Shown here piece by piece: positions 40,440 through 64,000 of a DNA stretch of 64,000 bases. Below the pieces are notes generated by a model. That model had not been told where the DNA came from, did no database searches, and worked only from the letters and a program-made list of their open reading frames with translations. The position numbers and the translations under genes were made by a program. Source of the DNA: Patescibacteria group bacterium (lineage in GTDB: Bacteria; Patescibacteriota; Microgenomatia; JAMCZE01); the NCBI GenBank assembly GCA_023485845.1, contig JAMCZE010000001.1:62456-126455 (forward strand), given 5' to 3'. Numbering within the stretch: position 1 is the stretch's first letter; each line of letters starts with the position of its first letter.

Positions 40440-40443
40440 TTAT

Positions 40444-42598: not shown

Positions 42599-42606
42599 CA
42601 TTAACC

Positions 42607-43601: not shown

Positions 43602-45199
43602 GAATCCTGCTTGGTTTTCCCGCCGTCTATTTTTTGTCGGGCTTTCCGCTGGCCCGGTTGTTTTTGCCGCAAGAGAAAACCTTTTCCCTAAAATTATTAC
43701 TTACCTCTTTTGCCTTCAGCTGTTTTCTCACCTATCCGGCGGCCGTTTTAACCACAATGATCGAAGGCCAATCGGCCGCCGCCATCTACAGTGTTCATTT
43801 GCCACATTCTCTGCTGTCCCTGGCGATTATTAGCTTGCCGTTTTGGTTTCTTCTCTGGAAAAAGAGGCTCCCGCGTCTTCATCTGCCCAGTCTTCGTAAA
43901 GTTCATCTTTTATTGGCCCTATTCTTGATTCTTTATTCCCTATTCGTCTTTGTTAATCTGAACCGCGCCGATGTTCTGGGTGATGATTATGATCTGGGCT
44001 ACCAGGCCTACAATCTCCAGGATGGCATCCTTGATGCCCGCCGGGCTTACGTGATTTCCTTTAACACCCATCCGCCGCTAATGATGACCATAAAGCATTA
44101 TGGCATGCAGCTTTTCTATCCTTGGGGTCTTGACGGCCTTTCTGACTGGATGTTTCGGGGAGTGGAAGGCATGATGGGTCTGGGGGTGATCCTGACATCA
44201 TACTTACTGGTCCGGGACTTTTTTAGTGAGCGGACTGCACTATTAACAGCCGCCCTCCTGGCGGTGAATAATTATTTGATCTTTATGGGGCGGATTTTTC
44301 TCCGGGAAATATACCTCACGTTTTTTCTGGTTATCGCCCTCTATTTTTTCCTGCATAAGAGAGTGTTCTTAGCCGCGTTTTTTCTTGGTTGCGCGCTTCT
44401 TGTCAAAGCCTCCGCCGTCATCTTGTTGCCGGTTTTTATTCTCTGGTTGTTAAAGGAGAAGAGAGTTAAAGAATTGGCTGTGGTGTTCTCAACTTTAATC
44501 GCTGTTTATGCACCGGTGGTTGTTTATAACGTCGGGGCTTACCTGGTGACTGGACATATGGATGCCACCTTTTCCTGGCTGTTTCACTTGCCAAACCCTT
44601 TTTTAACCGGACAATCCGCAAATCCTTTGTTAACCAACCCATCGGCCATTATTTCCATTTTAACGGATTTGTACGGTTGGCCGGTGTTTGCCTTTTTCCT
44701 CCTCTGTTTGGTAATTTTCCTTTTTCAGCGTCGGCACCAATATCTGCTGGTCTGGTTGGTGTCGTCCTTAATTTTCTTTTGTCTTGGCCCGCTGCGGGAA
44801 TATTACCTTTTGCCGTTGACAATCCCCCTGGTTATTATTTTGGCCGATGTTTTTAAAAAATTGCCGATTTTGATTGTTTCCATCTTAATTTTTTCGGCCG
44901 TTTATTCATTTAGCTCCGATTCCGCTATCGTCCGAGCATACAGTGCAGATCGGGGATGGAAAAATCTTAGCGCAAATCTATCAAAAGTCTATCTGCCAGG
45001 TGATTGTCTAATTGCTGGCCAGGGAGTCTCCGACTTGCCATTGCGTCGCTACCTGAAAACCGACGATGGTGTTAAGACCTATCTTCTCGGTCCAAATTAC
45101 CCTCACTATTACAAGATGTGCACGGAAGTTAAAGATCCAGAAAGAGAAATTGTGATTACTTATAATAATATTGGTAAAGTGACTTATGAAGTTTATTAA
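43592..45199 (+). CDS. GT-C glycosyltransferase, ArnT/PMT-like
   Basis: LGDDYDLGYQAYNL DD-type loop motif. 535 aa polytopic. Confidence 0.65.
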   Translation: MWLRILLGFPAVYFLSGFPLARLFLPQEKTFSLKLLLTSFAFSCFLTYPAAVLTTMIEGQSAAAIYSVHLPHSLLSLAIISLPFWFLLWKKRLPRLHLPSLRKVHLLLALFLILYSLFVFVNLNRADVLGDDYDLGYQAYNLQDGILDARRAYVISFNTHPPLMMTIKHYGMQLFYPWGLDGLSDWMFRGVEGMMGLGVILTSYLLVRDFFSERTALLTAALLAVNNYLIFMGRIFLREIYLTFFLVIALYFFLHKRVFLAAFFLGCALLVKASAVILLPVFILWLLKEKRVKELAVVFSTLIAVYAPVVVYNVGAYLVTGHMDATFSWLFHLPNPFLTGQSANPLLTNPSAIISILTDLYGWPVFAFFLLCLVIFLFQRRHQYLLVWLVSSLIFFCLGPLREYYLLPLTIPLVIILADVFKKLPILIVSILIFSAVYSFSSDSAIVRAYSADRGWKNLSANLSKVYLPGDCLIAGQGVSDLPLRRYLKTDDGVKTYLLGPNYPHYYKMCTEVKDPEREIVITYNNIGKVTYEVY

Positions 45200-46283
45200 T
45201 TTTCTTATTGATTTGGTTGTAGTCAGCCTATTCTTGTTTAATATCATCCCTCAGAAATATCATGTCATGGGCTTCTCTTTCCATAATGGTGGCGATGATG
45301 TCACTTACTTCAAGTTAGCCCAGAGCTTTGCCCAAGGAAATCCTTTTGGATGCGGCTGTTCAATCGGATATTCATTGACTTTAGCCCCGATTTTAAAATT
45401 GATGCCAAACATGTCTCACGATGATTTTCTTGTTGCAGTTTCGTTTATCACTTCAATAGGGCTCTTCCCACTCGGACAGATACTCCTATTCGAAATAAGT
45501 AAAAAAATGACCGGGTCAACTGAAACTGGGTCAGTAGTGGTGTTATTTTGGACGCTGTTGCCAATCGTCACCTTCTTGTTGTTAAAATTTATTATCCACG
45601 ATCCTAATGCTGGAGATATTTCGTCACATCTAATCTGGGCCCAAATGCTGACCGAGGGAATAACAACGATGGTTTCGCTTCTGGCATTAAATTTATTTTT
45701 AGATTTGCATAAAAAGCAAACCATCTCAAACATTATCCTGTTTGGAGCAATGTCTGGTTATATATTTCTCCTAAGAATAACTGGTGTTGTGGCAATTGTG
45801 GTGTTTGCTTTAATTTTTATTAAAAGCAAAAAATGGAAACAACTATTAATCTTTCTCACTTCTGCTTTTGTAATTGTGCTTCCCCAGTTGATCTATAATT
45901 ACACATTTTTTGGATCTCCACTTACTAGCGGATATGTAGTTAATAATCGTCTCGAGAGTGGCCTTTTTAGCGCGAAATATTTACTTGATGCTCTTATTAA
46001 AACTTGGACAAGGTTTGGTCCACTGGTGTTAGTAGTGATACCAATTACAGTAATGATTTTTTGGTCAAGCCTTATAAAATTAAAACGTTACTGCCAGGAC
46101 GGCGCTCTGGTAATTTTTCTCTGGACGATCGGGACAGTGGCAATATACTCCCTGTACTATTATACTTATACTGGTGACTACGTTCGGTTCATGATCCCAA
46201 TTCTGCCATTCCTGAGCCTAATTTTTATTTCCGGAATACCTTATGAGAATATTATCAATCGGCTTAGATCGCGCGCTATTTGA
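45186..46283 (+). CDS. GT-C-like polytopic membrane protein
   Basis: HNGGDDVTYFKLAQSF DD motif after TM1. 365 aa. AT-richer than upstream genes. Confidence 0.5.
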   Translation: MKFINFLIDLVVVSLFLFNIIPQKYHVMGFSFHNGGDDVTYFKLAQSFAQGNPFGCGCSIGYSLTLAPILKLMPNMSHDDFLVAVSFITSIGLFPLGQILLFEISKKMTGSTETGSVVVLFWTLLPIVTFLLLKFIIHDPNAGDISSHLIWAQMLTEGITTMVSLLALNLFLDLHKKQTISNIILFGAMSGYIFLLRITGVVAIVVFALIFIKSKKWKQLLIFLTSAFVIVLPQLIYNYTFFGSPLTSGYVVNNRLESGLFSAKYLLDALIKTWTRFGPLVLVVIPITVMIFWSSLIKLKRYCQDGALVIFLWTIGTVAIYSLYYYTYTGDYVRFMIPILPFLSLIFISGIPYENIINRLRSRAI

Positions 46284-47265
46284 TCAGGAATCAGACACTT
46301 TCTGGCGAGTGTCCACCTATGCTTCGTGGTTTGTGAACTACACGGTAATTGTGACCACACTAAAAAGTGAAAAGAGAAAGGAATTCTCGCAAAAAAGCCT
46401 CCGGGTCATTCCGACAAATAGCACAATTAGACTTCTTTATCCATTAGATGTTTTGCGCATTGCCTGGCAAAATCGAAAAGAAAGTTTTGACCTGGTTACC
46501 GTCCAGGACCCCTTTATCTGCGCTATTGCCGGGGTCCTCGTTAAATTTTTACTTCACATTCCGCTTAATATCCAAGTCCACAGTGAGTTTTTCAACAGCA
46601 AATATTTTAGGGAAGAAAGTAAATTTAATCGTATTCTTTACTATATTGGCTTGGCCACCACCCATTTTGCGGACACAATCCGCGCCCGGAACCGTCGAAT
46701 CGCCGCCTATTTCAAGAACAGGAAAACTTTTTATGTGGCGGCGCCGATCAATCCAATCTATCTCCGGCCGCTTTCCCGAGCCAAGCGTGATAAAAATCTG
46801 ATCATTTCCGTCGGCCGCGATGTTCCCCAGAAAAATTTCGCTCTGCTTCGGGAAGCCGTCGGGATGGTTAAGAAAAAGTTCCCCGGTGTGCGTTTAGAAA
46901 TTGTCACTGGCGGAAAGTCCTCGGCGGAATTAAAAAGGCTATATGAGCACGCTGGTGTTTTTATTCTGTCCAGCAACCATGAGGGTTGGGGATTGGTGGT
47001 TCTCGAAGCCCTGGCCCGTGGCTGCCCGGTGGTGATGACGGACACCGGCTGTGCTAGGGAAATAGTGATTGATGGCCGGACTGGCTACGTAGCCCCAGTT
47101 GGCAATGCCAGAGCATTGGCTCAGAAAATTATTTTGACGTTAGGAGATTATCAGCACTCGCTGGCGATGGCTAAAGATGGTCGCAATCTGGTGACAAAAG
47201 ATTGTTCTTTTAAAACTATAAAAAAACAGACGGTTTTAATGTATGAAGCTACTCTACATCACTAA
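46243..47265 (+). CDS. GT4 (GT-B fold) glycosyltransferase
   Basis: C-terminal NHEGWGLVVLEALARGCPVV. Confidence 0.8.
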   Translation: MRILSIGLDRALFDQESDTFWRVSTYASWFVNYTVIVTTLKSEKRKEFSQKSLRVIPTNSTIRLLYPLDVLRIAWQNRKESFDLVTVQDPFICAIAGVLVKFLLHIPLNIQVHSEFFNSKYFREESKFNRILYYIGLATTHFADTIRARNRRIAAYFKNRKTFYVAAPINPIYLRPLSRAKRDKNLIISVGRDVPQKNFALLREAVGMVKKKFPGVRLEIVTGGKSSAELKRLYEHAGVFILSSNHEGWGLVVLEALARGCPVVMTDTGCAREIVIDGRTGYVAPVGNARALAQKIILTLGDYQHSLAMAKDGRNLVTKDCSFKTIKKQTVLMYEATLHH

Positions 47266-48352
47266 TTCTCGCTTGCCAACAAGCAAAGCCCACGGTGTTC
47301 AGATTGCCAAAATGTGTGAGGCACTGATTGAAAATGGAATCAATTTGCAGTTGATAATTCCCAGGAGGAATAATTCGATTAAAGAGACAATTGAGCAGTA
47401 CTATGATCTGCGAGTAAAAATTTCATTCAGAAAACTTTTGGTAATTGACCTTTTCCCAAAATTTGACTCTTTTGCTTTTGTAGTCGAATCATTAACATTT
47501 TACTTGGGTGTTTTGTTAATCACCCTTGTCGATCAAAAGACGAAGGTTTTCACTAGGGATAGCTACTCTCCTTTGTTCTGTTTTTTTAAGGGGCGTGTTA
47601 CCTGGGAAGTCCATGAATTGCCAAAGACAATTTTTGGTAATATTCTGACAACTTTTCTAATAAGAAAATGTCAATTGATCGTTGCACCCAACAAAGCAGT
47701 GGCGCAATTTTGCTTATCCCGTGGCGTTTCTAAAGATAGAGTAGTCTATCTTCCTAACGGCGTGGATCTGAAAGCATTTTCCATTCCCTTGTTGACGAAT
47801 AAGGCCCGGCAATTGTTAGATCTACCCCCAAAATACTTCCTAGTTGGTTATATGGGTTCACTATATCAAAGAAAAGGTGTTGACATCCTGATCAAGTCGG
47901 CTGCGTTGTTGCCGGCTGGTTTTAAAATAGTGATTTTTGGTGGCCCAGACAACGAATTTAGAAGAATTAAGGATTTAATTTACAAGCTTGGTGTTAATAA
48001 AAGAGTTCTTATCTTCTCGGCGATTCCCTATAAACAAGTGCCGATAGCACTTCGAGCAATGAATGTCCTTGTTATTCCCAATAGTGCTAAGGAGCGTCTC
48101 TCCAGTGATGAAACCTCTCCGCTAAAATTCCGGGAATATTTGGCATCAAAAAAGCCGGTTGTTGCCTCAGATGTCCCTAGCCTTCGCGAACTGAATCCTA
48201 TGACCGGACAAGTTCGCTATTTCCTTTCTGATGATCCAAAATCCTTATCGCAGGCAATATTGGCAGCCACAAAGATGCACAAAGTGTTTGAAATTGATAA
48301 AAATATCTCTGTTAAGGAAAGGGCAAGAAAACTTATTCTTAAACTAAGATGA
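47243..48352 (+). CDS. GT4 (GT-B fold) glycosyltransferase
   Basis: LVGYMGSLYQRKGVD and a C-terminal E-x7-E-like region. Confidence 0.7.
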   Translation: MKLLYITNSRLPTSKAHGVQIAKMCEALIENGINLQLIIPRRNNSIKETIEQYYDLRVKISFRKLLVIDLFPKFDSFAFVVESLTFYLGVLLITLVDQKTKVFTRDSYSPLFCFFKGRVTWEVHELPKTIFGNILTTFLIRKCQLIVAPNKAVAQFCLSRGVSKDRVVYLPNGVDLKAFSIPLLTNKARQLLDLPPKYFLVGYMGSLYQRKGVDILIKSAALLPAGFKIVIFGGPDNEFRRIKDLIYKLGVNKRVLIFSAIPYKQVPIALRAMNVLVIPNSAKERLSSDETSPLKFREYLASKKPVVASDVPSLRELNPMTGQVRYFLSDDPKSLSQAILAATKMHKVFEIDKNISVKERARKLILKLR

Positions 48353-49512
48353 AAATTTTCTACGTTACTAATCTTAGGTTACCCAATGAGCGGGGAGTTT
48401 CTTTCGGCGTGGTGACAATGTGTAAGGCTCTGTCCCAGGCTGGGAATGAGGTGGAACTAATTGCCCCAAATCAAGATCAACCCTCAACAATGAAAGGAGA
48501 AACAATTTGGCACTACCACCAAATTGACCCAAAGACATTCACTCTCACCAAGTTGTCTTTCTGGGATATTTCGGTGCCGCACTTACATAATCTGGCATTG
48601 AATTGGAGCTTTGGATTGAAAGTAATCATCTACCTTCTTAAAAAGAAAGCAGAAGTGGTTCATTTATTTAATGACACTAGAGAAATCCTATTTCTCTTGA
48701 AATTAATTTCCTGGTTCTACCACCCCTTTGTCATTTTTGAGCTTCATATCTTGCCAATTGGTAGGTATGAAAAAATAATAGAAGACTTAGCGATTAAAAG
48801 AGTTGATCTGTTGTTAGTAACTACTAATAGATTTGCGAAGTACTACCAAGACCATAATTTTGAAAAAGGGAAAATTCTTGTTTTCCCAAATGGAATTGAT
48901 CTTAGTGAGTTTGACTACGGAACATCAAAGAAAAAATTGCGCAGCGAGTTGAATCTGCCGCAGGATGCATTTATTGTCGGCTATGCCGGTCGGTTTGTGA
49001 CCATGGGGATGGAGAAGGGGATTCCGGAGTTAATTATTGCAGGCAAGTCCTTAAAAGCAAGATTTCCCAATATTCAACTTGTCTGTGTTGGGGGGCCGGA
49101 GGAGTACGTCGCAAGATATAAGCAGCTTGATGAAGGGGCTATCTTTATTGGTAATGTTCCCAGAAAAACTCTCTATAAATATATGCGTGCCTTTGATGTT
49201 TGTGCCATGCCCTTCCCTTGGACAGAACATTTTGCCTATAATATGTCTCCATTGAAAATGTTTGAGTATATGGCTAGTAAAAATCCTATTATTGCCACAA
49301 AGTTGCCGTCTTTCGGAGAAATATTAGCTGACCATAAAAATGCTTTACTGTCCAAACCGGGAAGCTGGAAAAGTATTGCCTGGAACATAGAAGAATTAAT
49401 CAGAGATAAACGTCTTTGTAATAAACTTTCTGGAGCGGCCTTTACAGAAGTAACACAGAAATACACTTGGGAAAAAAGAGCCGATAGCGAGGTTGCCCGC
49501 ATTATTCTATAA
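48349..49512 (+). CDS. GT4 (GT-B fold) glycosyltransferase
   Basis: IVGYAGRF..KGIPELI pattern and C-terminal motifs. Confidence 0.7.
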   Translation: MKIFYVTNLRLPNERGVSFGVVTMCKALSQAGNEVELIAPNQDQPSTMKGETIWHYHQIDPKTFTLTKLSFWDISVPHLHNLALNWSFGLKVIIYLLKKKAEVVHLFNDTREILFLLKLISWFYHPFVIFELHILPIGRYEKIIEDLAIKRVDLLLVTTNRFAKYYQDHNFEKGKILVFPNGIDLSEFDYGTSKKKLRSELNLPQDAFIVGYAGRFVTMGMEKGIPELIIAGKSLKARFPNIQLVCVGGPEEYVARYKQLDEGAIFIGNVPRKTLYKYMRAFDVCAMPFPWTEHFAYNMSPLKMFEYMASKNPIIATKLPSFGEILADHKNALLSKPGSWKSIAWNIEELIRDKRLCNKLSGAAFTEVTQKYTWEKRADSEVARIIL

Positions 49513-49520
49513 TCAAATTT

Positions 49521-50345: not shown

Positions 50346-50351
50346 GTGCTT

Positions 50352-52332: not shown

Positions 52333-52333
52333 T

Positions 52334-56322: not shown

Positions 56323-56380
56323 ACGGGGTCAGCTAATGATGTTTTCATAGTCTGACGACTTTATGCCGGGGTTTCTGTAC

Positions 56381-56409
56381 TTGTCAAACCGTTAGGAGTA
56401 AAATATAGT
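56381..56409 (+). promoter_or_regulatory. Candidate sigma70-like promoter (TTGTCA-17 bp-TATAGT) and AGGAG SD in the only 88-bp intergenic gap
   Basis: Read directly. The -10 lies too close to ATG 56411 for a normal leader, so the start codon or the promoter call is uncertain. Confidence 0.3.
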
Positions 56410-56410
56410 A

Positions 56411-57322
56411 ATGTTAGGCGCTGAGACTGCTACAGAACGAAAAGAGGGAATTGACCCCAGATCGATTGCCATTTGTGCTGCCACGTTTTACAAAACCTGG
56501 ATGCCAGGGGAGAGAACAGCTCCTAATATTGATATTGACCGCGGCGACGCTTCCTTACAAGCTTTTGAATTAGCCCAAAGGGCTGGGTATCAAATGGTGG
56601 TGGTGGATGGTGGTAGTTCGGACGCCTATTTAAACGAGGCTAGGGAGCGCGGTGTTTTATTACTGTCCCAACAGGAAAAGAGTATTTCATCAGCAAAAAG
56701 GCAAGCGTTCAAAGCCGCTCAAGAATCAAAGGGCTGTCGGTTTATTATCCTAATTCAGCCGGAAAAAGACTCCATTATTAAGGATGTGCCACAAATTATT
56801 CGACCGATTTATTCCGATGGAGCAGATGTTGTCGTTGCTAGTCGAGATCCGATTCTTTTTAGAGACACATACCCGTCTTTCCAATATGAATCAGAGAATT
56901 GGGCGAATAGACAATGTAATAGAATTGCTCATCTGATGAAAATTCTTCCACTCGGCGCAAATTTAGATTGGTTTTTTGGGGTAAAAGTCTTTAGAAACAC
57001 CCCAGAGATTGTGGCCTTATTTGTGAGAAAATTTCAGATTACTGACGAATCTTATGCTAAAAAGAATAATCTTGACCCGGAAAGATACTTTGATGTGGAC
57101 TTCTTTCCGATAGTTGAGGCTTTGCGAATTGGGAAAAGGGTTGTGGATGTTCAAGTTCCCTTTGAATATCCCAGGCCACAAAAAGAAATGGAGGAGACTT
57201 TACAAGAGAAATTTGTAGAAAAAAGACGACTTCAAAGAAGAAGCATCTTAACCGAATACGTCCAGTATTTTCGACTCTTAACAAAAAGCCAAAAGAATAA
57301 ATTGATGGAGTCAGAGGCATGA
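56411..57322 (+). CDS. Divergent GT-A-fold glycosyltransferase-like protein
   Basis: VVVDGGSSD (DxD-like) and ..FGVKVFR.. pattern. No confident family assignment. Confidence 0.4.
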   Translation: MLGAETATERKEGIDPRSIAICAATFYKTWMPGERTAPNIDIDRGDASLQAFELAQRAGYQMVVVDGGSSDAYLNEARERGVLLLSQQEKSISSAKRQAFKAAQESKGCRFIILIQPEKDSIIKDVPQIIRPIYSDGADVVVASRDPILFRDTYPSFQYESENWANRQCNRIAHLMKILPLGANLDWFFGVKVFRNTPEIVALFVRKFQITDESYAKKNNLDPERYFDVDFFPIVEALRIGKRVVDVQVPFEYPRPQKEMEETLQEKFVEKRRLQRRSILTEYVQYFRLLTKSQKNKLMESEA

Positions 57323-58506
57323 AAAATAATTTGATAGGTAAGGGACATAAGCCAACTAAGAATCAATCGACCTTTAATAAGGCAATATCTCTTCAAAGTC
57401 ATCTAAAGAATTCAAATTTTCCTAAAATTCGGAATTTTATCATAAATGACCCAGACTCAATTAGATTTGAACCATTTTTGAACAGAGATCTACTTAGGTT
57501 AAATTTAGAGAGTCTGCAAAAAATAAAGCCGAATGAGACTAAGGTAATAAAGCAGGTGAAAGAAGAAATTGGCCGTATTGACAAAATTGTTAATAAAACA
57601 CCAGATATTATGACTAAGAATCTTCGGCCTTTATCACGAAGCTTAAGTAAGTCACCGAAGGTTTCGATTATCACAACTTCAATGAACCTGGCTCCACTAT
57701 TAGATGAGACGATGAGATCGATTTTCAATCAGGAAGGGGATGATTATGAATATATTGTCATTGATGGCGGATCGTCTGATAACTCTTTAAAGTTAATGAA
57801 GAAATACCCAATTTCGGTTTTGATTTCCGAAAAAGACAGTGGCTATCCAGAAGCTTTCTGGAAAGGGCTACGTTTGGCAAAAGGGAAGTATATTATGCAG
57901 TGTTGTATTTCTGATGGCTATGCTTCACCATCTTGGGTCAAGAAATGTGTCCAATTTCTTGATAGCCATAAAGATATCTCTTTGGTTTGGGGAAATGCGT
58001 CTGGTTTATCTGCAAAAGGTCAAATGGTTGATATTACTTATCCGCGTTTTGTTTACGAAGAGGCACCGCAGGGTGAACAAATGTTTTCTTATTGGTTAAA
58101 GACGGCATTTCATTACCCGGAGGTAAACCTATGCGTCAGGAAAGAAGTTATTCTTAAATGCTATCCACCCATGCCCTGGCGAAACGAAGATATGTTGGAT
58201 TGGTTGGAATTTGACTACCGGTTTAATAAATCAGGTTATCTTTCAAAATATTTACCGATTCTGGCCAGTTTTCATTATCTTGAGCACGGCAACAAATTAG
58301 GCAAGAAACTTGACAAAAATGGTTGGTACCAGAGAGTATTAAAAATACACAAAAGAAGAATTTGGTTTTACAAATGGCAGTTATTACTTGGTTTTGCTAC
58401 ACACCGTTTTGTAAACTCTAAAGAAGAAGAACTATCTACCAAGTTTGATCACAACAAGTTAAGACAAGAAACGCTTTCAGAAATTAAATCACATCTGCTG
58501 CAATGA
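57319..58506 (+). CDS. GT2 glycosyltransferase with C-terminal extension
   Basis: VSIITTSMN..YEYIVIDGGSSDNS GT2 signature. Confidence 0.7.
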   Translation: MKNNLIGKGHKPTKNQSTFNKAISLQSHLKNSNFPKIRNFIINDPDSIRFEPFLNRDLLRLNLESLQKIKPNETKVIKQVKEEIGRIDKIVNKTPDIMTKNLRPLSRSLSKSPKVSIITTSMNLAPLLDETMRSIFNQEGDDYEYIVIDGGSSDNSLKLMKKYPISVLISEKDSGYPEAFWKGLRLAKGKYIMQCCISDGYASPSWVKKCVQFLDSHKDISLVWGNASGLSAKGQMVDITYPRFVYEEAPQGEQMFSYWLKTAFHYPEVNLCVRKEVILKCYPPMPWRNEDMLDWLEFDYRFNKSGYLSKYLPILASFHYLEHGNKLGKKLDKNGWYQRVLKIHKRRIWFYKWQLLLGFATHRFVNSKEEELSTKFDHNKLRQETLSEIKSHLLQ

Positions 58507-59528
58507 AAAAAATTTTTCTTGCAGTTCCGAACCCACTTTTCGCGAATAATGGTATATTTACCCGGAAGGATTGGAATCATACATTTGACTGCTGGAGGGG
58601 GTTAAGAGTTCGATTAAAAAAACTTGGTTATAGCCTTACTACTCCCGATAATAATTCACTATCAGGTTGCGAGTGGGTGATTTTTATTGATACGTCAAGC
58701 GTTGATGGTCTTTCCAGTGATAAAAGTTGGCCTAATAGGCAATTATATTCAGAAGCATTAAGAGTAAACCTAAAAAGTAAAATGATATTGTTTCTGTGGG
58801 AAGGAAAAGTTATTAATTCCATCAATTACGCAAGAGAAACGTGGGATAAGTTTGATAATATTTTTACCTGGGATGATGATTTAGTAGACAACCATAAATT
58901 TCACAAATTCTATTTGCCCGTACCGAATGTGCCACCGGTTAAAAAAACTATACCGTTTAATAAAAAAAAATTATTGGTTAATATCTCAATAAATAAATAT
59001 GCAAAAGGACCGAATGAATTATATTCAGCCAGGAGAAAAACGATTGAATATTTTGACAATAACTTTCCTAATGATTTTGATCTTTTTGGCCCTCGATGGA
59101 ACAAGCCAATAAACACTTTTCAAAAATATCTTCCCTGGACATGGAAAAAATATCGTACATATCGCGGCGTGTCGTTTAATAAACTTAAAACCTTGTCTCA
59201 ATATAAATTTACCCTTTGCTATGAGAATATGACAGGTTCAAAGGGGTGGGTGACAGAGAAAATATTTGATGCCCTTAAAGCTAAAAGTGTGCCTATATAT
59301 TGGGGGGCGCCAAATATTGGAAAGTATGTAGACAATGATGTGTTTATTGACAGGCGAAATTTTTCTAGTGAAGAGAAACTGGCAAAATTCCTGATGCATA
59401 TGACAGAAAATGAATATAATAACTATATAATCTCCGGCGAGCAATATATAAAAAGCAGCAGATTTAATAAATTTTCATCTAGATATTTCGGCGACACGAT
59501 CCTAAAACTACTTAAAATTAATGCATAA
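58503..59528 (+). CDS. GT10-family (alpha-1,3-fucosyltransferase-like) glycosyltransferase
   Basis: KFTLCYENMTGSKGWVTEKIFDALKAKSVPIYWGAP matches the GT10 motif of H. pylori FutA (KFxLxFENS..GYVTEKI.DA....PIYWG.P) as I recall it. Confidence 0.7.
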   Translation: MKKIFLAVPNPLFANNGIFTRKDWNHTFDCWRGLRVRLKKLGYSLTTPDNNSLSGCEWVIFIDTSSVDGLSSDKSWPNRQLYSEALRVNLKSKMILFLWEGKVINSINYARETWDKFDNIFTWDDDLVDNHKFHKFYLPVPNVPPVKKTIPFNKKKLLVNISINKYAKGPNELYSARRKTIEYFDNNFPNDFDLFGPRWNKPINTFQKYLPWTWKKYRTYRGVSFNKLKTLSQYKFTLCYENMTGSKGWVTEKIFDALKAKSVPIYWGAPNIGKYVDNDVFIDRRNFSSEEKLAKFLMHMTENEYNNYIISGEQYIKSSRFNKFSSRYFGDTILKLLKINA

Positions 59529-60333: not shown

Positions 60334-61129
60334 TGTTCCTATTCTACTGTTAATTTTTAATCGACCTGAGATGACAAGAAAAGTGTTGGCATCTATCAGG
60401 TTGATAAAGCCGAAAAAGTTATACATTGCGGCTGATGGGCCAAGAGACAAGGGCGATATCTCTAAATGCCTTGCGGCTAGGAAAATCGTTAAGGAAGTTA
60501 ACTGGCCTTGTCGGGTAAAAACTCTCTTCCAAGACAATAATTTGGGTTGCGGACTTGGACCTGTGACCGGTATTAATTGGTTCTTTAAGCATGTGGAAGC
60601 AGGAATTATTCTGGAAGATGATTGCCTGCCAGCCCCCTCCTTTCTTTACTTTTGTCAGGAATTATTGAACCACTACTGGAATAATTCCAGTATAATGCAC
60701 ATCAGTGGTAATAATTTCCAATATGGCAAAAAATTTGGGCATGGGTCTTATTATTTTTCGCAATATACTCACAATTGGGGTTGGGCTACCTGGCGCCGCG
60801 CCTGGAGACATAATAACTACCGACTTTTAAGCCGGGAGAAAAGAAAACAAGTGTGGGATAAACAATGGCTCATGTCGGTGGAAAAGGCAAAGGGGCTGGC
60901 GATTCTTCCAAATGTTAATTTGGTTTCTAATATCGGGTTTGGAGCTGAGGCAACGCACACAAAAAAGATAGAACGATATGCCAAGCTTCCACTTCAGACA
61001 ATGAAATTTCCGCTAGTTCATCCAAAGTCCATATCAAGGAATGTTATGGCTGATTTTCTCACCTACCATAACCATTTCGGAGGGAGCACTCTTGGCTTTA
61101 TCTTTCAGGAGCTGTCTAAATTAATATGA
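60311..61129 (+). CDS. GT-A-fold glycosyltransferase, GNT-I/HlpA-like
   Basis: LLIFNRPEMTRKVL..LYIAADGP..GIILEDDCLP motifs. Tentative. Confidence 0.45.
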   Translation: MVMTKQFDVPILLLIFNRPEMTRKVLASIRLIKPKKLYIAADGPRDKGDISKCLAARKIVKEVNWPCRVKTLFQDNNLGCGLGPVTGINWFFKHVEAGIILEDDCLPAPSFLYFCQELLNHYWNNSSIMHISGNNFQYGKKFGHGSYYFSQYTHNWGWATWRRAWRHNNYRLLSREKRKQVWDKQWLMSVEKAKGLAILPNVNLVSNIGFGAEATHTKKIERYAKLPLQTMKFPLVHPKSISRNVMADFLTYHNHFGGSTLGFIFQELSKLI

Positions 61130-62010
61130 ATATCCTTAATCCAATTACCAAAAATAGAAATGTTGTTTTGGAAGAAAAAATTTCCATTTCTCGTGTTATT
61201 AGAGAGTATCGAGACCAACTGCATGTTAATGTTAGACGGTTTTTTCGTGGCCATAAAGAAATAAGCATCTATCGGTGTTTAGACACCGGGTACCGTTTTT
61301 ATTACCCCTTTAATCTTGCTGGTGACAGTTTGTTTTACCAAAGACTAGAAAGATTTCGTTGGTATTACATGGATTGGAAATGGGAGCAGGAAATTGCCCA
61401 GAAAGAAATCAGCCACACAGATGTCATCCTGGAGATTGGCTGTGCTAGGGGTGGGTTTCTCGACAAAGTCAAGACAAGTTGCAGAGAGAGTATCGGATTA
61501 GAGACAAACCAAAAGGCCCTGACTGCCGCCAGAAAGAGAGGTTTGAGTGCTTTTAATCAAACGATCGAGGAATATGCTAAAGCTAATAAAAGGCAATATG
61601 ATGTCGTCTGTTCGTTTCAGGTTCTTGAGCATATTCCTGATGTTCAAGGCTTTATTTTGTCTTCGCTTGCCGTCTTAAAAAAGGGCGGAAAAATGATTAT
61701 TAGTGTGCCCAATAACGATAGCCTTGTGATTCGAAACAATAATATTGCCTTAAACTTTCCGCCCCATCATATGGGGCTGTGGAACCTTAATTCATTAATC
61801 AAGATTCAGAATTTTTTTGATATACGACTTGATAAAATCTTGCTTGAGCCGCTGCAGCCCTATCACTTAGGTTTTGCCCAAAGACGTTTTGCGATGAGCT
61901 CGGGTAAATTGATAAGGCTCATGCCAAAAAGTGTCACGGCCGGTATTATAGAAGCAGTTAGGGAAGATATTATTGGCCACACAATTATGGCTGTCTATAT
62001 AAAGAAATAG
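61126..62010 (+). CDS. Class I SAM-dependent methyltransferase
   Basis: ILEIGCARGGF (motif I), DVVCSFQVLEHI..LKKGGKMIISVP (motifs II/III). Confidence 0.75.
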   Translation: MNILNPITKNRNVVLEEKISISRVIREYRDQLHVNVRRFFRGHKEISIYRCLDTGYRFYYPFNLAGDSLFYQRLERFRWYYMDWKWEQEIAQKEISHTDVILEIGCARGGFLDKVKTSCRESIGLETNQKALTAARKRGLSAFNQTIEEYAKANKRQYDVVCSFQVLEHIPDVQGFILSSLAVLKKGGKMIISVPNNDSLVIRNNNIALNFPPHHMGLWNLNSLIKIQNFFDIRLDKILLEPLQPYHLGFAQRRFAMSSGKLIRLMPKSVTAGIIEAVREDIIGHTIMAVYIKK

Positions 62011-62012
62011 TT

Positions 62013-64000
62013 ATGAGACAAGAGAATTCTATTAGTTTTGTTATGCCAGCGTATAACAGTGAACGTACCGTTAATGAGGCAGTTGAGTCAATTATTAATG
62101 GAAACCTTATAGACGGAGATGAGATTATTATTGTGGACGACGCGTCCACGGACAAAACGACAGAAAGGATTCAGACTTTAGCCGCAAAATATCCCATAAT
62201 AAGAATAATTCGTAACAGAGTGAACAAGGGTTGTCCAGCCTCAAGAAACATTGGAATAAGAGCGGCAAAAAATCTTCTCATTTTTAATCTTGATGCGGAT
62301 GATGTTTTGATAGCCGGAAGTGTTTCTAAACTGAAAGAATATCTCCTTTTTGAGAAAGCAGATGTCGCCGCCTTCGGAGAAATTCATTTTTTTAAGAATA
62401 ATACAAACGAAGTCACACATCGCTGGATACTTCCGTCTGGTATTCTTACTTTGGCAGACTATTTATCTGGACCGTATGTGCCCGGGGGAAATTATCTTTA
62501 CACTAAAAAAAGCTGGGCAAAAGTTAATGGCTATTGGGAATACGGAAAAGGACTTCATGAATTTTGGGGATTTAGCCTTAAACAAATTGCCTCTGGGTCA
62601 AAATTTATAGTGTTAGCAAACACCTTCTATTATCATCGATACAACCATAAGTCTCTTTTTATCCGGGAAACCAGTAGCAGTGATGACAGCTCTTTAATGG
62701 CAACGAAAATGACAAAGCCATTTCTTTCTTTAATAGAACCTCATGATCGGCAATATATTGAAAGTGAAGAGGGTAGCCGAACGTGGTTTACAAATCTGTC
62801 TAATCATCCGATCCGTGTCAAAAATAAAGAGATCGGCCGGCAAGGTATAAAGGAGGTTCTCGAGAAAAAAACGCGACCGTTTTTTGGCGGTTGGATTGGA
62901 TCAAAAGTGGAACGAGCACATGATTATTATCGATTTGCTAAGGACTTTGTAGCTTTTAAATCCATCCAAAATGATCGTTTCTTGGTTTCATGGAGAGATA
63001 GTCGACCCAGATTAGGTGAGGACACACCCAATACTGTCTTTGATCCCCATTACATCTATCATACTGCTTGGGCTGCTAGAATTTTGTCAAAGATCAAGCC
63101 AAAATATCATACCGATATATCATCTATTCTCTACTTTAGTTCGATTATTTCTGCCTTTATACCGGTAAGATTTTACGATTACCGTCCTGTTAATTTAAGG
63201 TTAAATAATTTAACCTCCGGCTTCGCGGATCTGACAAAGTTACCGTTTGCTGATAACAGCATCCCTTCACTTTCGTGCATGCATACCGTTGAACATATTG
63301 GGCTAGGTCGGTATGGGGACAAGCTTAATCCAGATGAAGACCTCCGGGCAATAAGCGAATTAAAAAGAGTTCTCGCCTATGGGGGGTCACTTTTGTTTGT
63401 GGTACCCATTGGTCGGCCAAGAGTTTTATTTAATGCCCACCGCATATATTCTCTAAATCAGGTCATCTCTTATTTTCCCGATCTTGAGTTAAAAGAATTT
63501 TCCTTAGTGCCAGACGACTATGATCGATTGGGAATGGTAGATAATCCGTCGGAGGAATTTTGTAACCAGCAAGATTACGCTTGCGGGTGTTTCTGGTTTA
63601 CAAAGAGGGAGCTCAAAACTTTTGGAAGTAGAAATAGTAAAAAATACTCAGTCGATGTAGTGATACCCGTCTACAACGGACAAGACTACATCATTCAAGC
63701 GATTGAGTCTGTCAATAAACAGACTTATAAACCGAATAAAATTATTGTTGTTGACGATGGGTCGACAGATAAAACGCCGGCGTTAATTAAACGTCTGAGG
63801 AAAAGCAATCAGACATTATTTTATTTGCGAAAAAGAAGAGGAGGGCCGAGCTCTGCCCGCAATGTTGGTATTAAATATAGCAATGCTGAATTCATTGCTT
63901 TTTTAGATGCTGATGATGTTTGGGAGTCAGCTAAACTGGAAAAACAAATTAAACTGTTTAAAAATAGCGACAATCAAAATTTAGGCGTTGTTTATTGCAA
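62013..64000 (+). CDS. Large multidomain protein GT2 - DUF268-like methyltransferase-fold domain - GT2, 3' end beyond window
   Basis: Hand-translated: no stop from ATG 62013 to nt 64000, so the ORF track omits it. N-terminal SFVMPAYNSERTV..IIIVDDASTDKT..LDADD. Middle ..SCMHTVEHIGLGRYGD..LAYGGSL..NAHRIYS. C-terminal VDVVIPVYNGQDYI..IIVVDDGSTDKT..LDADD. Confidence 0.6.
   Translation, partial: MRQENSISFVMPAYNSERTVNEAVESIINGNLIDGDEIIIVDDASTDKTTERIQTLAAKYPIIRIIRNRVNKGCPASRNIGIRAAKNLLIFNLDADDVLIAGSVSKLKEYLLFEKADVAAFGEIHFFKNNTNEVTHRWILPSGILTLADYLSGPYVPGGNYLYTKKSWAKVNGYWEYGKGLHEFWGFSLKQIASGSKFIVLANTFYYHRYNHKSLFIRETSSSDDSSLMATKMTKPFLSLIEPHDRQYIESEEGSRTWFTNLSNHPIRVKNKEIGRQGIKEVLEKKTRPFFGGWIGSKVERAHDYYRFAKDFVAFKSIQNDRFLVSWRDSRPRLGEDTPNTVFDPHYIYHTAWAARILSKIKPKYHTDISSILYFSSIISAFIPVRFYDYRPVNLRLNNLTSGFADLTKLPFADNSIPSLSCMHTVEHIGLGRYGDKLNPDEDLRAISELKRVLAYGGSLLFVVPIGRPRVLFNAHRIYSLNQVISYFPDLELKEFSLVPDDYDRLGMVDNPSEEFCNQQDYACGCFWFTKRELKTFGSRNSKKYSVDVVIPVYNGQDYIIQAIESVNKQTYKPNKIIVVDDGSTDKTPALIKRLRKSNQTLFYLRKRRGGPSSARNVGIKYSNAEFIAFLDADDVWESAKLEKQIKLFKNSDNQNLGVVYC

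Follow-up and report, generated by a model that had tools for sequence, protein, structure and literature searches.

A low-GC glycan assembly block with an ABC-type exporter at a conserved surface-glycan locus of an uncultured Patescibacteria bacterium

The final 19 kb of the analysed window (a stretch of 64,000 nucleotides from an uncultured, ultra-small Patescibacteria bacterium known from a MAG) open a low-GC block that measures at least 27 kb in all and comprises two ABC-transporter-dependent glycan assembly modules in tandem. The pathway is of the ordinary ABC-transporter type for making and exporting glycan, and its product would be a capped, probably methylated, deoxy-sugar polymer. We consider it probable, though well short of certain, that this block at a conserved surface-glycan locus encodes an ABC-exported capped-glycan pathway whose cassette was replaced by recombination from a lower-GC relative; with such an origin it would represent a replacement-type glycan island. 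The gene content listed in the initial annotation (Wzm, Wzt, FkbM and class I methyltransferases, GT2-DUF268-GT2, GT4/GT2/GT10 enzymes, and sugar genes) is confirmed by Pfam for each item, including three GT4 genes, GT2 genes, one GT10 gene, and sugar-nucleotide genes (Table 1). The 19-kb tail described there is indeed a low-GC cassette, but the window end cuts it off: the block extends further and includes another Wzm/Wzt pair.

Table 1. Features at the border and in the low-GC part of the window
Position	Strand	Feature	Basis
43592..45199	+	GT-C (PMT_2 / GT39-like) membrane glycosyltransferase	Pfam PMT_2 32.9 bits, PMT 32.4 bits
45186..46283	+	Polytopic membrane protein, weak GT-C similarity	Pfam PMT_2 16.6 bits, below cut-off
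46243..47265	+	GT4 glycosyltransferase, host-like GC	Pfam Glycos_transf_1 100.5 bits
47243..48352	+	GT4 glycosyltransferase, low GC	Pfam Glycos_transf_1 67.8 bits; GC3 0.386
48349..49512	+	GT4 glycosyltransferase, low GC	Pfam Glycos_transf_1 83.5 bits, Glyco_transf_4 48.8 bits
49521..50345	+	Wzm, ABC-2 permease of glycan exporter	Pfam ABC2_membrane 76.6 bits
50346..51575	+	Wzt, ABC nucleotide-binding domain and C-terminal CBD	Pfam ABC_tran 76.7 bits, Wzt_C 34.7 bits
51556..52332	+	Transketolase-like ThDP enzyme, N-terminal subunit	Pfam Transketolase_N 123.6 bits
52334..53212	+	Transketolase-like ThDP enzyme, C-terminal subunit	Pfam Transket_pyr 68.3 bits, Transketolase_C 37.5 bits
53205..54224	+	Extended short-chain dehydrogenase on nucleotide sugar	Pfam Epimerase 143.1 bits
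54184..56322	+	Fusion: GDP-L-fucose-synthase / ColC-like (N-terminal) and ColD-type PMP-dependent 3-dehydratase (C-terminal)	
56323..56410	.	Largest intergenic gap in tail, 88 nt (others 0-8 nt)	Gene spacing
56411..57322	+	Probable GT-A glycosyltransferase, weak GT2 similarity	Pfam Glycos_transf_2 19.3 bits, below cut-off
57319..58506	+	GT2 glycosyltransferase	Pfam Glycos_transf_2 68.3 bits, residues 116-230
58503..59528	+	GT10-family (fucosyltransferase-type) glycosyltransferase	Pfam Glyco_transf_10 54.7 bits
59521..60333	+	FkbM-family SAM methyltransferase	Pfam Methyltransf_21 70.7 bits
60311..61129	+	Conserved protein, no assigned family	Homologues near Wzm/Wzt elsewhere
61126..62010	+	Class I SAM methyltransferase	Pfam Methyltransf_23 59.6 bits, Methyltransf_11 44.5 bits
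62013..64000, cut by window end	+	GT2 - DUF268-type methyltransferase - GT2	Pfam

The compositionally distinct, lower-GC tail reported initially from ~45.1 kb onward is real. Its GC content equals 0.3949 (positions 45,101-64,000) vs 0.4724 across positions 1-45,100, and the ranges of the 1-kb windows hardly overlap (0.350-0.442 and 0.440-0.520, respectively). The maximum-likelihood single change point falls at 44,830 and raises the log-likelihood by 163, whereas the best change point within the upstream part alone raises it by just 6.8. Regarding codon positions, mean GC3 is 0.382 ± 0.040 for the 17 tail genes and 0.524 ± 0.036 for the 43 upstream genes (Mann-Whitney p = 4e-9); the shift is largest at third positions, and first positions (GC1) show it too, as do, weakly, second positions (GC2). 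GC-normalised tetranucleotide usage, whose correlation with the upstream reference is ~0.96, drops to ~0.80 in the tail. The windowed GC, tetranucleotide, and codon-position profiles proposed in the initial annotation thus reveal a significant shift at ~45 kb. The four 60-nt GC values given there are right (0.53, 0.57, 0.32, 0.40) but unrepresentative, the upstream level being 47% and not 50-55%. Past the window end, low GC continues for at least 8 kb, to ~72 kb in window-equivalent coordinates. In the 10 kb upstream of the window GC is still 0.46-0.53, and non-glycan surface proteins encoded there (fn3, CAP, Big_13) have GC3 of 0.56-0.64, so the high-GC side is an unbroken stretch of 55 kb or more at GC 0.45-0.53.

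The source being a metagenome assembly, one might suspect that assembly or binning joined two organisms at ~45 kb, and two NCBI MAG assemblies do end at 55,652 and 55,818, with the two pieces placed in different bins. The junction itself (44.8-45.2 kb), however, is contiguous not only in the window source but also in Logan SRR10252151 (SRR10252151_40713, 100% identical over 39,521-64,000) and in NCBI JAMCSA010000023.1 (99.94% identical over 39,521-55,652). The border genes are co-directional and tightly packed, their reading frames overlap by 14 nt across the junction, and related loci likewise have GT-C followed by GT4, with Wzm/Wzt farther along. Because three assemblies cross the junction, we regard a chimera as extremely improbable.

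The GT-C gene closes the conserved host-GC block (GC3 0.509), and the change point lies ~370 nt ahead of its stop codon. Its orthologues (45-58% identity) occupy the matching position in four related loci, L088-L091, which share with the window a syntenic block of 10 genes matching 35.5-45.2 kb at 38-68% amino-acid identity. The membrane protein that follows is encoded by a low-GC gene (GC 0.377, GC3 0.388) with no tblastn match in these four loci, and it is therefore an insertion relative to them. The next gene, GT4_46243, interrupts the low-GC region as a mosaic patch, having GC3 of 0.487 and GC by thirds of 0.43/0.48/0.47, compared with 0.33/0.37/0.36 for its L089 orthologue; the uninterrupted low-GC block begins at the second GT4 gene. 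While flank genes are nearest to L088 and L090, the tail genes GT4_46243, GT4_48349, and Wzm are nearest to L089 (58-65% vs 26-49%). The identities to L089 are 65%, 58%, and 65%, respectively, vs 34-38% and 26-29% to the other relatives for the two GT4 proteins and 46-49% to L088 and L090 for Wzm. Part of this incongruence could be due to cassettes having been replaced in the other lineages. GT4_46243 is nearest to L089 though its GC is host-like.

In three of the four relatives, the same GT-C gene is followed 9-10 kb downstream by Wzm and Wzt (with Wzt_C), so the position of the transporter is ancestral. The overall GC of the four loci is 0.37-0.44, near the tail value, and in all four GC3 of the flank equals that of the downstream part (p = 0.3-0.97). 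Foreign origin of the tail DNA is the best reading, given that the relatives have no GC break and that tail and flank differ in their nearest relative. With a foreign composition at an ancestral position, what is foreign is the particular cassette found here, which most likely came from a lower-GC relative and replaced the resident one by homologous recombination. One crossover would have taken place within the 3' end of the GT-C gene. The initial annotation's horizontally acquired graft on a higher-GC region therefore holds as to foreign low-GC DNA, but not as a simple graft, since the transporter position is ancestral and the region is mosaic. No tRNA and no Rfam match turned up, the tail has no Pfam match to an integrase or transposase, and the border has no repeats, tRNA, or mobility genes, which fits recombinational replacement. 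All five window proteins tested at 90% identity are singletons. The relatives compared are only 45-68% identical, and neither a close donor nor a true empty site turned up among them.

Two other origins are both unlikely. The tail could be native, its composition having drifted through, e.g., AT-biased mutation combined with selection, relaxed or diversifying, in a hypervariable surface-glycan region. The ancestral position of Wzm/Wzt in the clade, the border free of mobility genes, tRNA, and repeats, and the close, co-directional, overlapping gene packing across it would all suit such drift, as would the GC of glycan clusters, which is often below that of their genomes (PMC2943079). It is hard to reconcile, however, with a GC3 step of 0.14 inside a few hundred bases, with the accompanying shift in tetranucleotide usage, with four out of four relatives that have the same locus without a flank-vs-cassette GC difference, and with the different nearest relatives of flank and tail genes; moreover, the upstream 45 kb consists of variable glycan genes too, yet has kept host GC. 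Alternatively, the polarity could be reversed, in that the genome is natively low in GC, as the four related loci with their tail-like GC are, and the upstream stretch of at least 55 kb was acquired. Our call on the native composition rests on the visible DNA, 55 kb at 0.47 vs 27 kb at 0.39. The higher-GC stretch is contiguous, includes the fn3, CAP, and Big_13 proteins with GC3 up to 0.64, and contains the 10-gene block syntenic with the relatives; the host-GC GT4_46243 inside the low-GC stretch is also easier to understand if it is left over from the native locus.

As for the transporter of the replaced cassette, the Wzt_C match exceeds the Pfam cut-off of 30.4 bits, and the CBD extends over ~51,111-51,572 (the database start codon of Wzt is the ATG at 50,352). 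The best PDB sequence match of Wzt is full-length A. aeolicus Wzt (8dku, 1e-66, residues 29-360 aligned). The initial annotation took the C-terminal extension for a carbohydrate-binding domain and suggested a structure model and a phylogeny as checks. In the AlphaFold2 model (pLDDT 88.7, pTM 0.85) the fold is present: the top 17 Foldseek matches in the PDB are all Wzt CBDs (5hno, 8dky, 6o14, 2r5o), with the best E-value for the Kdo-cap CBD 5hno and the closest superposition for the A. aeolicus CBD bound to 3-O-methyl-mannose (rmsd 1.9 Å, TM 0.74). By this model, the C-terminal domain truly has the carbohydrate-binding fold of Wzt proteins. A rough neighbour-joining tree groups the window Wzt with all 13 named CPR sequences in one clade, and 31 of the 32 non-CPR-labelled genome sequences lie outside it, the exception being an unclassified uncultured bin. 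Wzt relatives with an organism name (51-57% identity) are all CPR, the closest matches, up to 63%, being outside this named set.

In the studied systems with a CBD-bearing Wzt only capped chains are exported, and the caps known so far are methyl, methyl-phosphate, or Kdo (PMC9445017, PMC11231755). Given a true CBD, a terminal cap would therefore be needed for export here as well. The methyl group bound by the A. aeolicus CBD is covered by the lid residue Trp362 (PMC9445017), whereas the window CBD has no tryptophan at all and hence no counterpart of this residue, so its pocket gives no indication of a methyl cap.

Downstream of Wzt, the N-terminal transketolase-like subunit scores 232 bits with the NCBIfam transketolase model, under the equivalog cut-off of 488; a similar pair occurs 9.7 kb downstream of Wzm/Wzt in another locus (L049). 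The short-chain dehydrogenase is predicted from its sequence to be of dehydratase, decarboxylase, or reductase type, with UDP-glucuronate decarboxylase as the best PDB match (3e-28). It is not recognisable as a GDP-mannose dehydratase (NCBIfam gmd merely 21 bits), and NCBIfam and PDB sequence comparison found no Gmd for GDP-sugar supply. In the fusion protein, the N-terminal half matches GDP-fucose synthase in the PDB at 1.6e-97, and the C-terminal half matches ColD (2gms) at 7e-62 vs 2e-44 for the CDP-sugar dehydrase E1. The latter half keeps the His-His of the ColD active site where aminotransferases have Lys; the 'DegT' domain is a ColD-type dehydratase and not an aminotransferase. The nearest relatives of each half are separate proteins, and fused relatives are just 30-35% identical. 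This combination points to a colitose/fucose-type sugar, and the enzyme is predicted to make GDP-3,6-dideoxyhexose (colitose-type) and/or GDP-fucose.

Among the remaining glycosyltransferases, the probable GT-A enzyme has a weak NCBIfam AglJ match (29 bits), the GT2 enzyme after it carries an N-terminal extension of ~110 residues, and the GT10 gene is the lowest in GC (0.336). The FkbM protein (NCBIfam fkbM_fam 76.1 bits, cut-off 37.7) is a candidate sugar O-methyltransferase. The conserved protein next to it, which has no match by sequence in Pfam, NCBIfam, or PDB, has homologues near Wzm/Wzt in L055 (Parcubacteria), L006, and L080; from its sequence we suspect a GT-A-like enzyme. The GT2-DUF268-GT2 protein (Glycos_transf_2 in two stretches 213.9 bits, DUF268 48.3 bits) has a complete length of 849 aa, as seen in L003. 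The two-domain GT2-DUF268 form is common in Paceibacterota and Parcubacteria (50-57% identity), from which the closest such proteins come, and one other protein with all three domains was found. It is a candidate for a polymerase that is also a methylating, possibly capping, enzyme. Further methyltransferases lie beyond the window end, and in the whole block six or more such genes or domains are present.

In the pathway that we propose, cytoplasmic GT4, GT2, GT10, and GT11 enzymes would assemble the polymer on a polyprenyl-phosphate carrier from GDP-activated 6-deoxy or 3,6-dideoxy hexoses, partly supplied by the Fcl/ColC-ColD fusion enzyme, and the FkbM-type and class I methyltransferases and the DUF268 domain would decorate it. 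A cap at the non-reducing end would halt elongation and be recognised by the Wzt carbohydrate-binding domain, after which Wzm/Wzt would export the completed lipid-linked chain, to be moved to an envelope acceptor (candidates are an S-layer or other protein, a wall polymer, or a lipid). Within the window Pfam recognised no initiating phosphoglycosyltransferase, ligase, or oligosaccharyltransferase. Patescibacteria are not known to have LPS or an outer membrane, so the product would be a wall, S-layer, or lipid-linked glycan; the O-polysaccharide-like pathway proposed initially stands as an ABC-dependent glycan cassette but, in this host, not strictly as an O antigen.

Terminal methylation as the chain terminator is plausible by analogy. 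The S-layer glycan cluster of Geobacillus, a bacterium without an outer membrane, is also low in GC; besides Wzm/Wzt it includes WsaE, a fusion of a methyltransferase with two GT domains by which the chain receives its terminating 2-O-methyl cap (PMC2943079). The window GT2-DUF268-GT2 protein resembles WsaE as a GT-methyltransferase fusion. Pfam found no WbdD-like kinase, and inspection of the sequences by eye revealed no long coiled coil. Since the block has six or more methyltransferases, most of them would probably decorate internal residues, and none can be singled out as the terminator. A less probable but still sizeable alternative keeps the same pathway and origin and supposes that the methyltransferases decorate internal residues only, Wzt recognising a non-methyl cap such as a distinct terminal sugar (e.g., 3,6-dideoxyhexose) or a phosphate-containing or acetyl group. 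The number of methyltransferases, far beyond the need of one terminator, would agree with it, as would the known Kdo and methyl-phosphate caps (PMC11231755, PMC9445017), the best Foldseek E-value, the CBD without a methyl-lidding Trp, and the ColC-ColD rare-sugar enzyme directly after the transketolase pair and dehydrogenase that follow Wzt. The superposition on the 3-O-methyl-mannose-bound CBD, the WsaE-like fusion, and the presence of methyltransferases beside Wzm/Wzt(CBD) in all three transporter-bearing relatives argue instead for a methyl cap.

The 88-nt gap after the fusion gene lies near a weak second GC step (0.407 to 0.376 near 56,850) and near the two assembly ends. It contains a promoter-like site (56,381-56,409), such sites overall being not above chance, and it is a possible boundary between two modules.

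According to two-kb windows, GC content equals 0.45-0.50 at 1-45 kb vs 0.36-0.43 at 45-64 kb, and overall it drops from 0.4724 before position 45,100 to 0.3949 beyond. One-kb windows of the two parts are nearly disjoint (lowest upstream value 0.440, highest tail value 0.442). In a two-segment likelihood scan the break falls at 44,830 and improves the log-likelihood by 163, in comparison with 6.8 for the best break when the upstream part is scanned alone. Per-gene GC3 is 0.524 +/- 0.036 upstream (n=43) and 0.382 +/- 0.040 in the tail (n=17; Mann-Whitney p = 4e-9), the change being mostly at synonymous positions, smaller for GC1 and slight for GC2. GC-corrected tetranucleotide usage behaves likewise, with the correlation to the upstream reference falling from ~0.96 to ~0.80. 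The shift at ~45.1 kb reported by the initial annotation is thus borne out by both profiles it had proposed as checks; its four spot samples of GC are also correct in value, but the upstream level of 50-55% read from them is wrong, the actual one being 47%.

The break sits ~370 nt 5' of the stop codon of the boundary GT-C gene, and the genes at the GC junction overlap by 14 nt. The next gene has low GC, the GT4 gene that follows (GT4_46243) is host-like in GC along its full length, and low GC is uninterrupted from ~47.25 kb on, with a further, weak step at ~56.85 kb. A MAG contig labelled 'Patescibacteria group bacterium' matches the window. An assembly chimera is ruled out, since three assemblies span the junction: Logan SRR10252151_40713 is contiguous over it at 100% identity (39,521-64,000), as is NCBI JAMCSA010000023.1 at 99.94% (39,521-55,652).

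The DNA beyond the window end, reached via exact-protein matches (contig L003), has GC of 0.35-0.40 and GC3 of 0.32-0.39. Because it remains low in GC and carries a second Wzm/Wzt pair, the 19-kb tail opens a block that spans 27 kb or more. Overall identity between the two Wzt proteins is 39%; according to the alignment read by eye, this similarity is found mainly in the nucleotide-binding domain, where roughly half of the residues are identical, and the two C-terminal carbohydrate-binding domains (CBDs) are barely alignable. Such divergence suggests, at the sequence level, that the tandem transporters may serve two different glycans.

As for assembly ends within this region, two NCBI MAG assemblies stop inside the ColD domain of the fusion protein (at 55,652 and 55,818, with the last few bases diverging), and the two NCBI pieces fell into different bins. 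Logan and NCBI contigs both end near 76.3 kb, past the window (L002 and L004). Contig breaks at ~55.7 and ~76.3 kb suggest a strain-variable module of ~20.5 kb, and the low-GC block is probably modular and variable within the population.

Features of the window and, in the last rows, of the adjoining DNA in which the low-GC block continues
Feature	Coordinates	Remarks
MptA_B-like gene	1,444-2,496	350 aa; compared with L086 10,777-11,830
Wzx-like flippase	15,745-17,190	only one upstream
Tandem duplication	22,222-22,681 = 22,677-23,136	perfect, 455-bp unit, 100% identity
GHMP kinase and SIS isomerase	32,604-34,175
Gene order shared with relatives	35.5-45.2 kb	GT2, GT4, GT2, DUF2304, GT4, GT4, PMT_2, GT4 (sometimes split), GT-C
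Split GT4 gene	42,607-43,601	N-terminal ORF 158 aa, C-terminal ORF 173 aa, 4-nt overlap
Mismatch cluster	42,728-42,740	13 nt, in the N-terminal ORF of the split GT4
Boundary GT-C gene	43,592-45,199 (+)	PMT_2 / GT39-like
Membrane protein	45,186-46,283 (+)	weak GT-C similarity
Three GT4 genes	46,243-47,265 (+); 48,349-49,512 (+)	GT4_46243 and GT4_48349 are two of the three
Wzm	(+)
Wzt	50,346-51,575 (+)	with CBD
Transketolase-like pair, split, and extended SDR	51,556-54,224 (+)	top PDB match of SDR: UDP-glucuronate decarboxylase; no recognisable Gmd
Fusion protein	54,184-56,322 (+)	712 aa; GDP-fucose-synthase/ColC-like and ColD-type domains
Largest gap of the tail	56,323-56,410	88 nt
Weak GT2, GT2, GT10	(+)
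FkbM methyltransferase	(+)
Conserved protein	60,311-61,129 (+)	without known family
Class I methyltransferase	(+)
GT2-DUF268-GT2 protein	(+)	interrupted by window end; 849 aa at full length
Second Wzm, second Wzt		beyond the window; weak Wzt_C in Wzt
Hexapeptide acyltransferase, methyltransferase		beyond the window
Protein of unknown function		beyond the window; 290 aa
GT2, GT11, methyltransferase, GT2		beyond the window; GT11 being the alpha-1,2-fucosyltransferase family

The tail was annotated by Pfam, NCBIfam and PDB comparisons. All its genes lie on the + strand and mostly overlap, and apart from the largest gap the remaining ones are 0-8 nt. Pfam recovers the genes named by the initial annotation, i.e. 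Wzm, Wzt with its CBD, FkbM and class I methyltransferases, the GT2-DUF268-GT2 protein and the glycosyltransferases; the conserved protein without known family has no match in Pfam, NCBIfam or PDB. No integrase or transposase was detected in the tail by Pfam, no tRNA and no border repeats were found, and Rfam, tRNA and promoter/terminator scans returned nothing beyond chance. A prophage or integrative element is ruled out by the absence of mobility genes.

Regarding the exporter, Wzm (Pfam ABC2_membrane, 76.6 bits) is encoded directly upstream of Wzt, whose nucleotide-binding domain scores 76.7 bits for ABC_tran. The best PDB sequence matches of Wzt are A. aeolicus Wzt (1e-66) and then TarH/TagH; it aligns to full-length A. 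aeolicus Wzt across residues 29-360, and Foldseek reports 1e-33 for 8dne. Its start codon is GTG in the ORF list and ATG at 50,352 in databases. The CBD alone has no PDB match by sequence and exceeds the Pfam Wzt_C cut-off of 30.4 with 34.7 bits. For the final 162 residues, an AlphaFold2 model computed from a 27-sequence alignment is all-beta and confident (pLDDT 88.7, pTM 0.85), and its top 17 PDB fold matches according to Foldseek are all Wzt carbohydrate-binding domains: those of K. pneumoniae/R. terrigena O12 (5hno, 5hnp), A. aeolicus (8dky with 3-O-methyl-mannose, 6o14, and full-length cryo-EM structures 8dku, 8dne, 8dl0 and 7k2t) and E. coli O9a (2r5o). These matches have E-values of 1e-7 to 1e-5 and TM up to 0.74, with an rmsd of 1.9-2.9 A to 8dky, 6o14 and 2r5o and a sequence identity to known Wzt CBDs of 13-16%. 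The model and its 17 fold matches thus confirm a carbohydrate-binding fold, the lack of which the initial annotation had named as evidence against its reading. A Wzm permease, a Wzt/TagH-type nucleotide-binding domain and a jelly-roll CBD, by which ABC-transporter glycan export is recognised, are all present.

In studied systems, a Wzt CBD goes with a non-reducing-end cap that ends elongation and licenses export, known caps being methyl, methyl-phosphate and Kdo (PMC9445017, PMC11231755, PMC3482155). The modelled fold does not tell which of these kinds would be bound here. In contrast to A. aeolicus, where Trp362 lids the methyl group (PMC9445017), the CBD contains no tryptophan and hence no counterpart of this residue. 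The literature offered nothing useful on Wzt in Patescibacteria/CPR.

As for sugar supply, the N-terminal half of the fusion protein resembles GDP-L-fucose synthase (1.6e-97 in a PDB sequence search), and the C-terminal half and ColD 2gms align over their full lengths at 7e-62, in comparison with 2e-44 for CDP-sugar dehydrase E1. Its AHHLSTIEGG stretch aligns with SHHIATMEGG of ColD, so that the ColD His-His is kept at the site where aminotransferases have the PLP lysine. A DegT fold with His in place of the PLP-binding Lys is the mark of ColD-type 3-dehydratases, and an aminotransferase role of the DegT domain was therefore rejected in favour of a 3-dehydratase. For the fusion enzyme, the predicted product is a 3,6-dideoxyhexose of colitose type and/or fucose. 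Both enzymes of the GDP-L-colitose pathway (ColD and ColC in E. coli O55 and Yersinia) are matched, namely ColD and a GDP-fucose-synthase/ColC-type reductase-epimerase; here, however, they are joined in one protein. Each half has stand-alone proteins as nearest relatives (54-60% identity), and in a library of 1.84 billion proteins fused relatives are rare and only 30-35% identical. No Gmd or ManB/ManC was found near the fusion gene.

The split transketolase-like ThDP pair and the SDR lie directly 3' of Wzt inside the glycan cassette, and in L049, a deltaproteobacterial MAG, a comparable transketolase pair follows Wzm/Wzt at a distance of 9.7 kb. Heptose precursor supply and the building of a branched or higher-carbon sugar are both possibilities for its role. 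Nothing useful on transketolase pairs in glycan clusters was found in the literature.

The observations are the domains, the fold of the CBD and the transporters in tandem, and homology to studied systems would order them as follows. The GT4, GT2, GT10 and GT11 enzymes would assemble a glycan in the cytoplasm on polyprenyl phosphate, with a GDP-deoxyhexose supplied by the ColC-ColD fusion, and the FkbM, class I and DUF268 methyltransferases would O-methylate it. The chain would then be capped, the cap recognised by the CBD, the capped chain exported by Wzm/Wzt and finally transferred to some acceptor. WsaE of the Geobacillus S-layer glycan cluster, which combines a methyltransferase with two rhamnosyltransferase domains, adds the terminating 2-O-methyl cap (PMC2943079). 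The 849-aa protein, joining GT2, DUF268/Methyltransf_11 and GT2, resembles WsaE in logic and would therefore be the best terminator candidate; in contrast to WsaE, its domain order is GT2-MT-GT2 rather than MT-GT-GT, and its methyltransferase is DUF268-type. The block has at least six methyltransferases, most of which therefore probably act in decoration. No kinase domain was detected by Pfam in any tail protein, no coiled coil longer than ~40 residues that could act as a ruler, as in terminators of WbdD, WbbB or ORF6-O7 type, was seen in them by eye, and no initiating phosphoglycosyltransferase, ligase or oligosaccharyltransferase was recognised by Pfam in the window. In metagenomic proteins, as noticed from L003 10,888-13,437 and its homologues, DUF268-type methyltransferase domains are fused to varied partners (GT2, GT10, GT8, FkbM methyltransferase and TPR repeats), and DUF268 appears to be a mobile sugar-methylation module.

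By analogy, the locus would work like CBD-dependent O-polysaccharide pathways and Gram-positive S-layer glycan clusters. With the former (E. coli O8/O9a with WbdD and Wzt, K. pneumoniae O12 with WbbB, and Aquifex aeolicus WzmWzt) it shares the Wzm ABC-2 permease, a Wzt with nucleotide-binding domain and C-terminal jelly-roll CBD (2r5o, 5hno, 8dky) and a GT4/GT2 and methyltransferase cluster adjoining the transporter; the expected logic, i.e. export of capped chains only, would also be the same (PMC9445017, PMC11231755). In contrast to these pathways, there are two tandem transporter pairs with divergent CBDs, no WbdD-type kinase-methyltransferase as in E. coli O8/O9a was found, and the host is a patescibacterium without a lipid A-core acceptor. 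LPS is not known from Patescibacteria. No Wzy_C/WaaL-type Pfam match was found among 60 window ORFs either, and for these two reasons the product, described initially as O-polysaccharide-like, does not count as an O antigen when the term is used strictly.

With the slg clusters of Geobacillus stearothermophilus NRS 2004/3a and Paenibacillus alvei the locus shares an envelope without outer membrane, a Wzm/Wzt exporter, tightly overlapping genes and a multidomain protein of one methyltransferase and two GT domains, proposed there to add the terminating methyl cap; lowered GC is common to both, that of slg clusters being below the GC of the genome, which was taken as lateral transfer (PMC2943079). 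In contrast to them, the sugars here are predicted to be GDP-derived (fucose/colitose type) rather than dTDP-rhamnose. No WsaB-like oligosaccharyltransferase, rml genes or S-layer gene was seen in the window by Pfam, and several membrane ORFs have no family, so that an oligosaccharyltransferase or S-layer gene may still be among them.

Regarding origin, a search of 5.8 billion proteins yields only ~22 homologues of the boundary GT-C, four of them on long Logan contigs (L088-L091) from distant, taxonomically unlabelled relatives. All four keep the shared gene order of the table over 9-10 genes with 38-68% identity. Downstream of the GT-C, the four differ in how they combine GT4 genes, methyltransferases, an acetyltransferase and a Wzx-like gene, and 3 of the 4 have Wzm and Wzt (with Wzt_C) 9-10 kb downstream. 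This position of the transporter is thus ancestral in the clade, and the pathway was not simply grafted on in a one-off event as the initial annotation had it. Its overall interpretation is supported in part: the composition break and the CBD hold and a foreign origin is the best reading, but the simple graft does not hold.

Among these genomes the GC break is confined to that of the window: flank and downstream GC3 in L088-L091 are 0.35/0.36, 0.34/0.33, 0.45/0.45 and 0.37/0.35 (p = 0.3-0.97). Flank genes are nearest to L088 and L090 (e.g., the GT-C is 58, 49, 50 and 45% identical across L088-L091, respectively), and tail genes to L089, with 65% for GT4_46243, 58% for GT4_48349 and 65% for Wzm vs 26-49% for other relatives. 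The most economical reading is that homologous recombination with a clade member of lower GC replaced the cassette, the crossover lying in the 3' end of the boundary GT-C gene. The host-GC GT4_46243 would then be a leftover, or a piece of older date whose composition has ameliorated; gene conversion from an upstream paralogue was rejected, as window self-BLAST shows no DNA-level paralogy between tail and upstream part. Which composition is native was judged from the visible DNA, 55 kb at 0.47 vs 27 kb at 0.39.

Organism names are available for Wzt relatives of 51-57% identity (Patescibacteria, Paceibacterota, Zambryskibacteria and Sungbacteria), the nearest matches (up to 63%) carrying none; the nearest GT2-DUF268 proteins are from Paceibacterota and Parcubacteria. 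The Wzt phylogeny proposed by the initial annotation was computed as a rough neighbour-joining tree without support values and from similarity-biased sampling; in it, the window Wzt falls into a clade with all 13 named CPR sequences, and 31 of 32 non-CPR-labelled genome sequences stay outside, the exception being an unclassified uncultured bin. By sequence, the affinity of the tail genes is within CPR. A profile search of genome contigs with the Wzt alignment gave no donor among the matches listed, mostly 45-50% homologues from many phyla with synteny limited to Wzm-Wzt. The same search with the boundary GT-C gave no relative, nor was the source genome recovered, and all 5 tested window proteins are singletons at 90% identity.

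Replacement-type flexible genomic islands (O-chain or 'glycotype') carry envelope glycans in free-living bacteria. As a genomic feature the locus behaves like such an island: the upstream flank, the one seen, is conserved, downstream content differs at the same position except for Wzm/Wzt and some GT4 genes, and composition deviates to lower GC (host level taken from visible DNA) without integrase or tRNA, exchange in such islands likewise being explained by homologous recombination in the flanks. In contrast to these islands, the comparison here is between distant relatives (45-68% amino-acid identity) rather than strains of one species.

The locus follows rules known from O-antigen and S-layer glycan clusters in a poorly studied host phylum, and its uncommon parts (the ColC-ColD fusion, the GT2-DUF268-GT2 enzyme, the transketolase pair and the tandem exporters) are peripheral. 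A further-reaching picture, which we consider rather doubtful, is a recombination hot spot downstream of the conserved GT-C with interchangeable cassettes, in an ultra-small cell without LPS. In this genome, two tandem cap-reading exporters with different CBDs would deliver two methylated fucose/colitose-type glycans, which would define strain-specific surface types and serve in attaching to a host or escaping phages. If true, the CPR radiation would be added to the groups with cap-checked ABC export and serotype-like cassette swapping, along with such rare parts as the ColC-ColD fusion, the GT2-DUF268-GT2 enzyme and a transketolase pair that might make an unusual sugar. Surface glycans of CPR/Patescibacteria are essentially uncharacterised, and the cells are host-attached and phage-exposed. 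A conserved flank with exchangeable export cassettes would make strain-level glycan diversity trackable in metagenomes, and for the confidently modelled Wzt CBD the ligand could be determined in vitro.

As for the surroundings, the upstream 45 kb, at host GC, are an unusually dense array in which genes for extracytoplasmic glycosylation point the same way: at least 10 PMT_2-type GT-C genes, two YfhO, a GT87, the Wzx-like flippase, GT4 genes and small polyprenol-phosphate-type GT2 genes with DUF2304 and EamA-half partners. The initial annotation was thus accurate in describing a higher-GC Wzx/GT-C region. The GHMP kinase and SIS isomerase suggest a heptose pathway. Taken over window 1-45000 and L086 1-10000, the array also contains 2-3 YfhO, MptA_B-like genes and GtrA partners. 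The next 10 kb upstream of the window still have GC of 0.46-0.53 and encode surface proteins (fn3, CAP, Big_13) whose GC3 is 0.56-0.64.

Several local differences were observed between assemblies. The tandem duplication cuts a PMT_2 GT-C gene into a 197-aa fragment and a 526-aa gene, and NCBI JAMCSA010000023.1 and Logan SRR10278331 have a single intact 541-aa gene, exactly 455 bp shorter; the duplication either is peculiar to one strain or arose when the window source was assembled. The GT4 split recurs in other assemblies of the organism and in L089 and L091, the gene being intact in L088 and L090, and the two-ORF form may be functional rather than a pseudogene. In comparison with JAMCSA010000023.1, 8 of 10 mismatches of the window belong to the mismatch cluster, which looks like a small local variant or micro-inversion. 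The MptA_B-like gene is intact in the window and Logan and called as 202-aa and 137-aa ORFs in JAMCSA010000023.1, where identity is lost from ~2,043; we read this difference as an indel.
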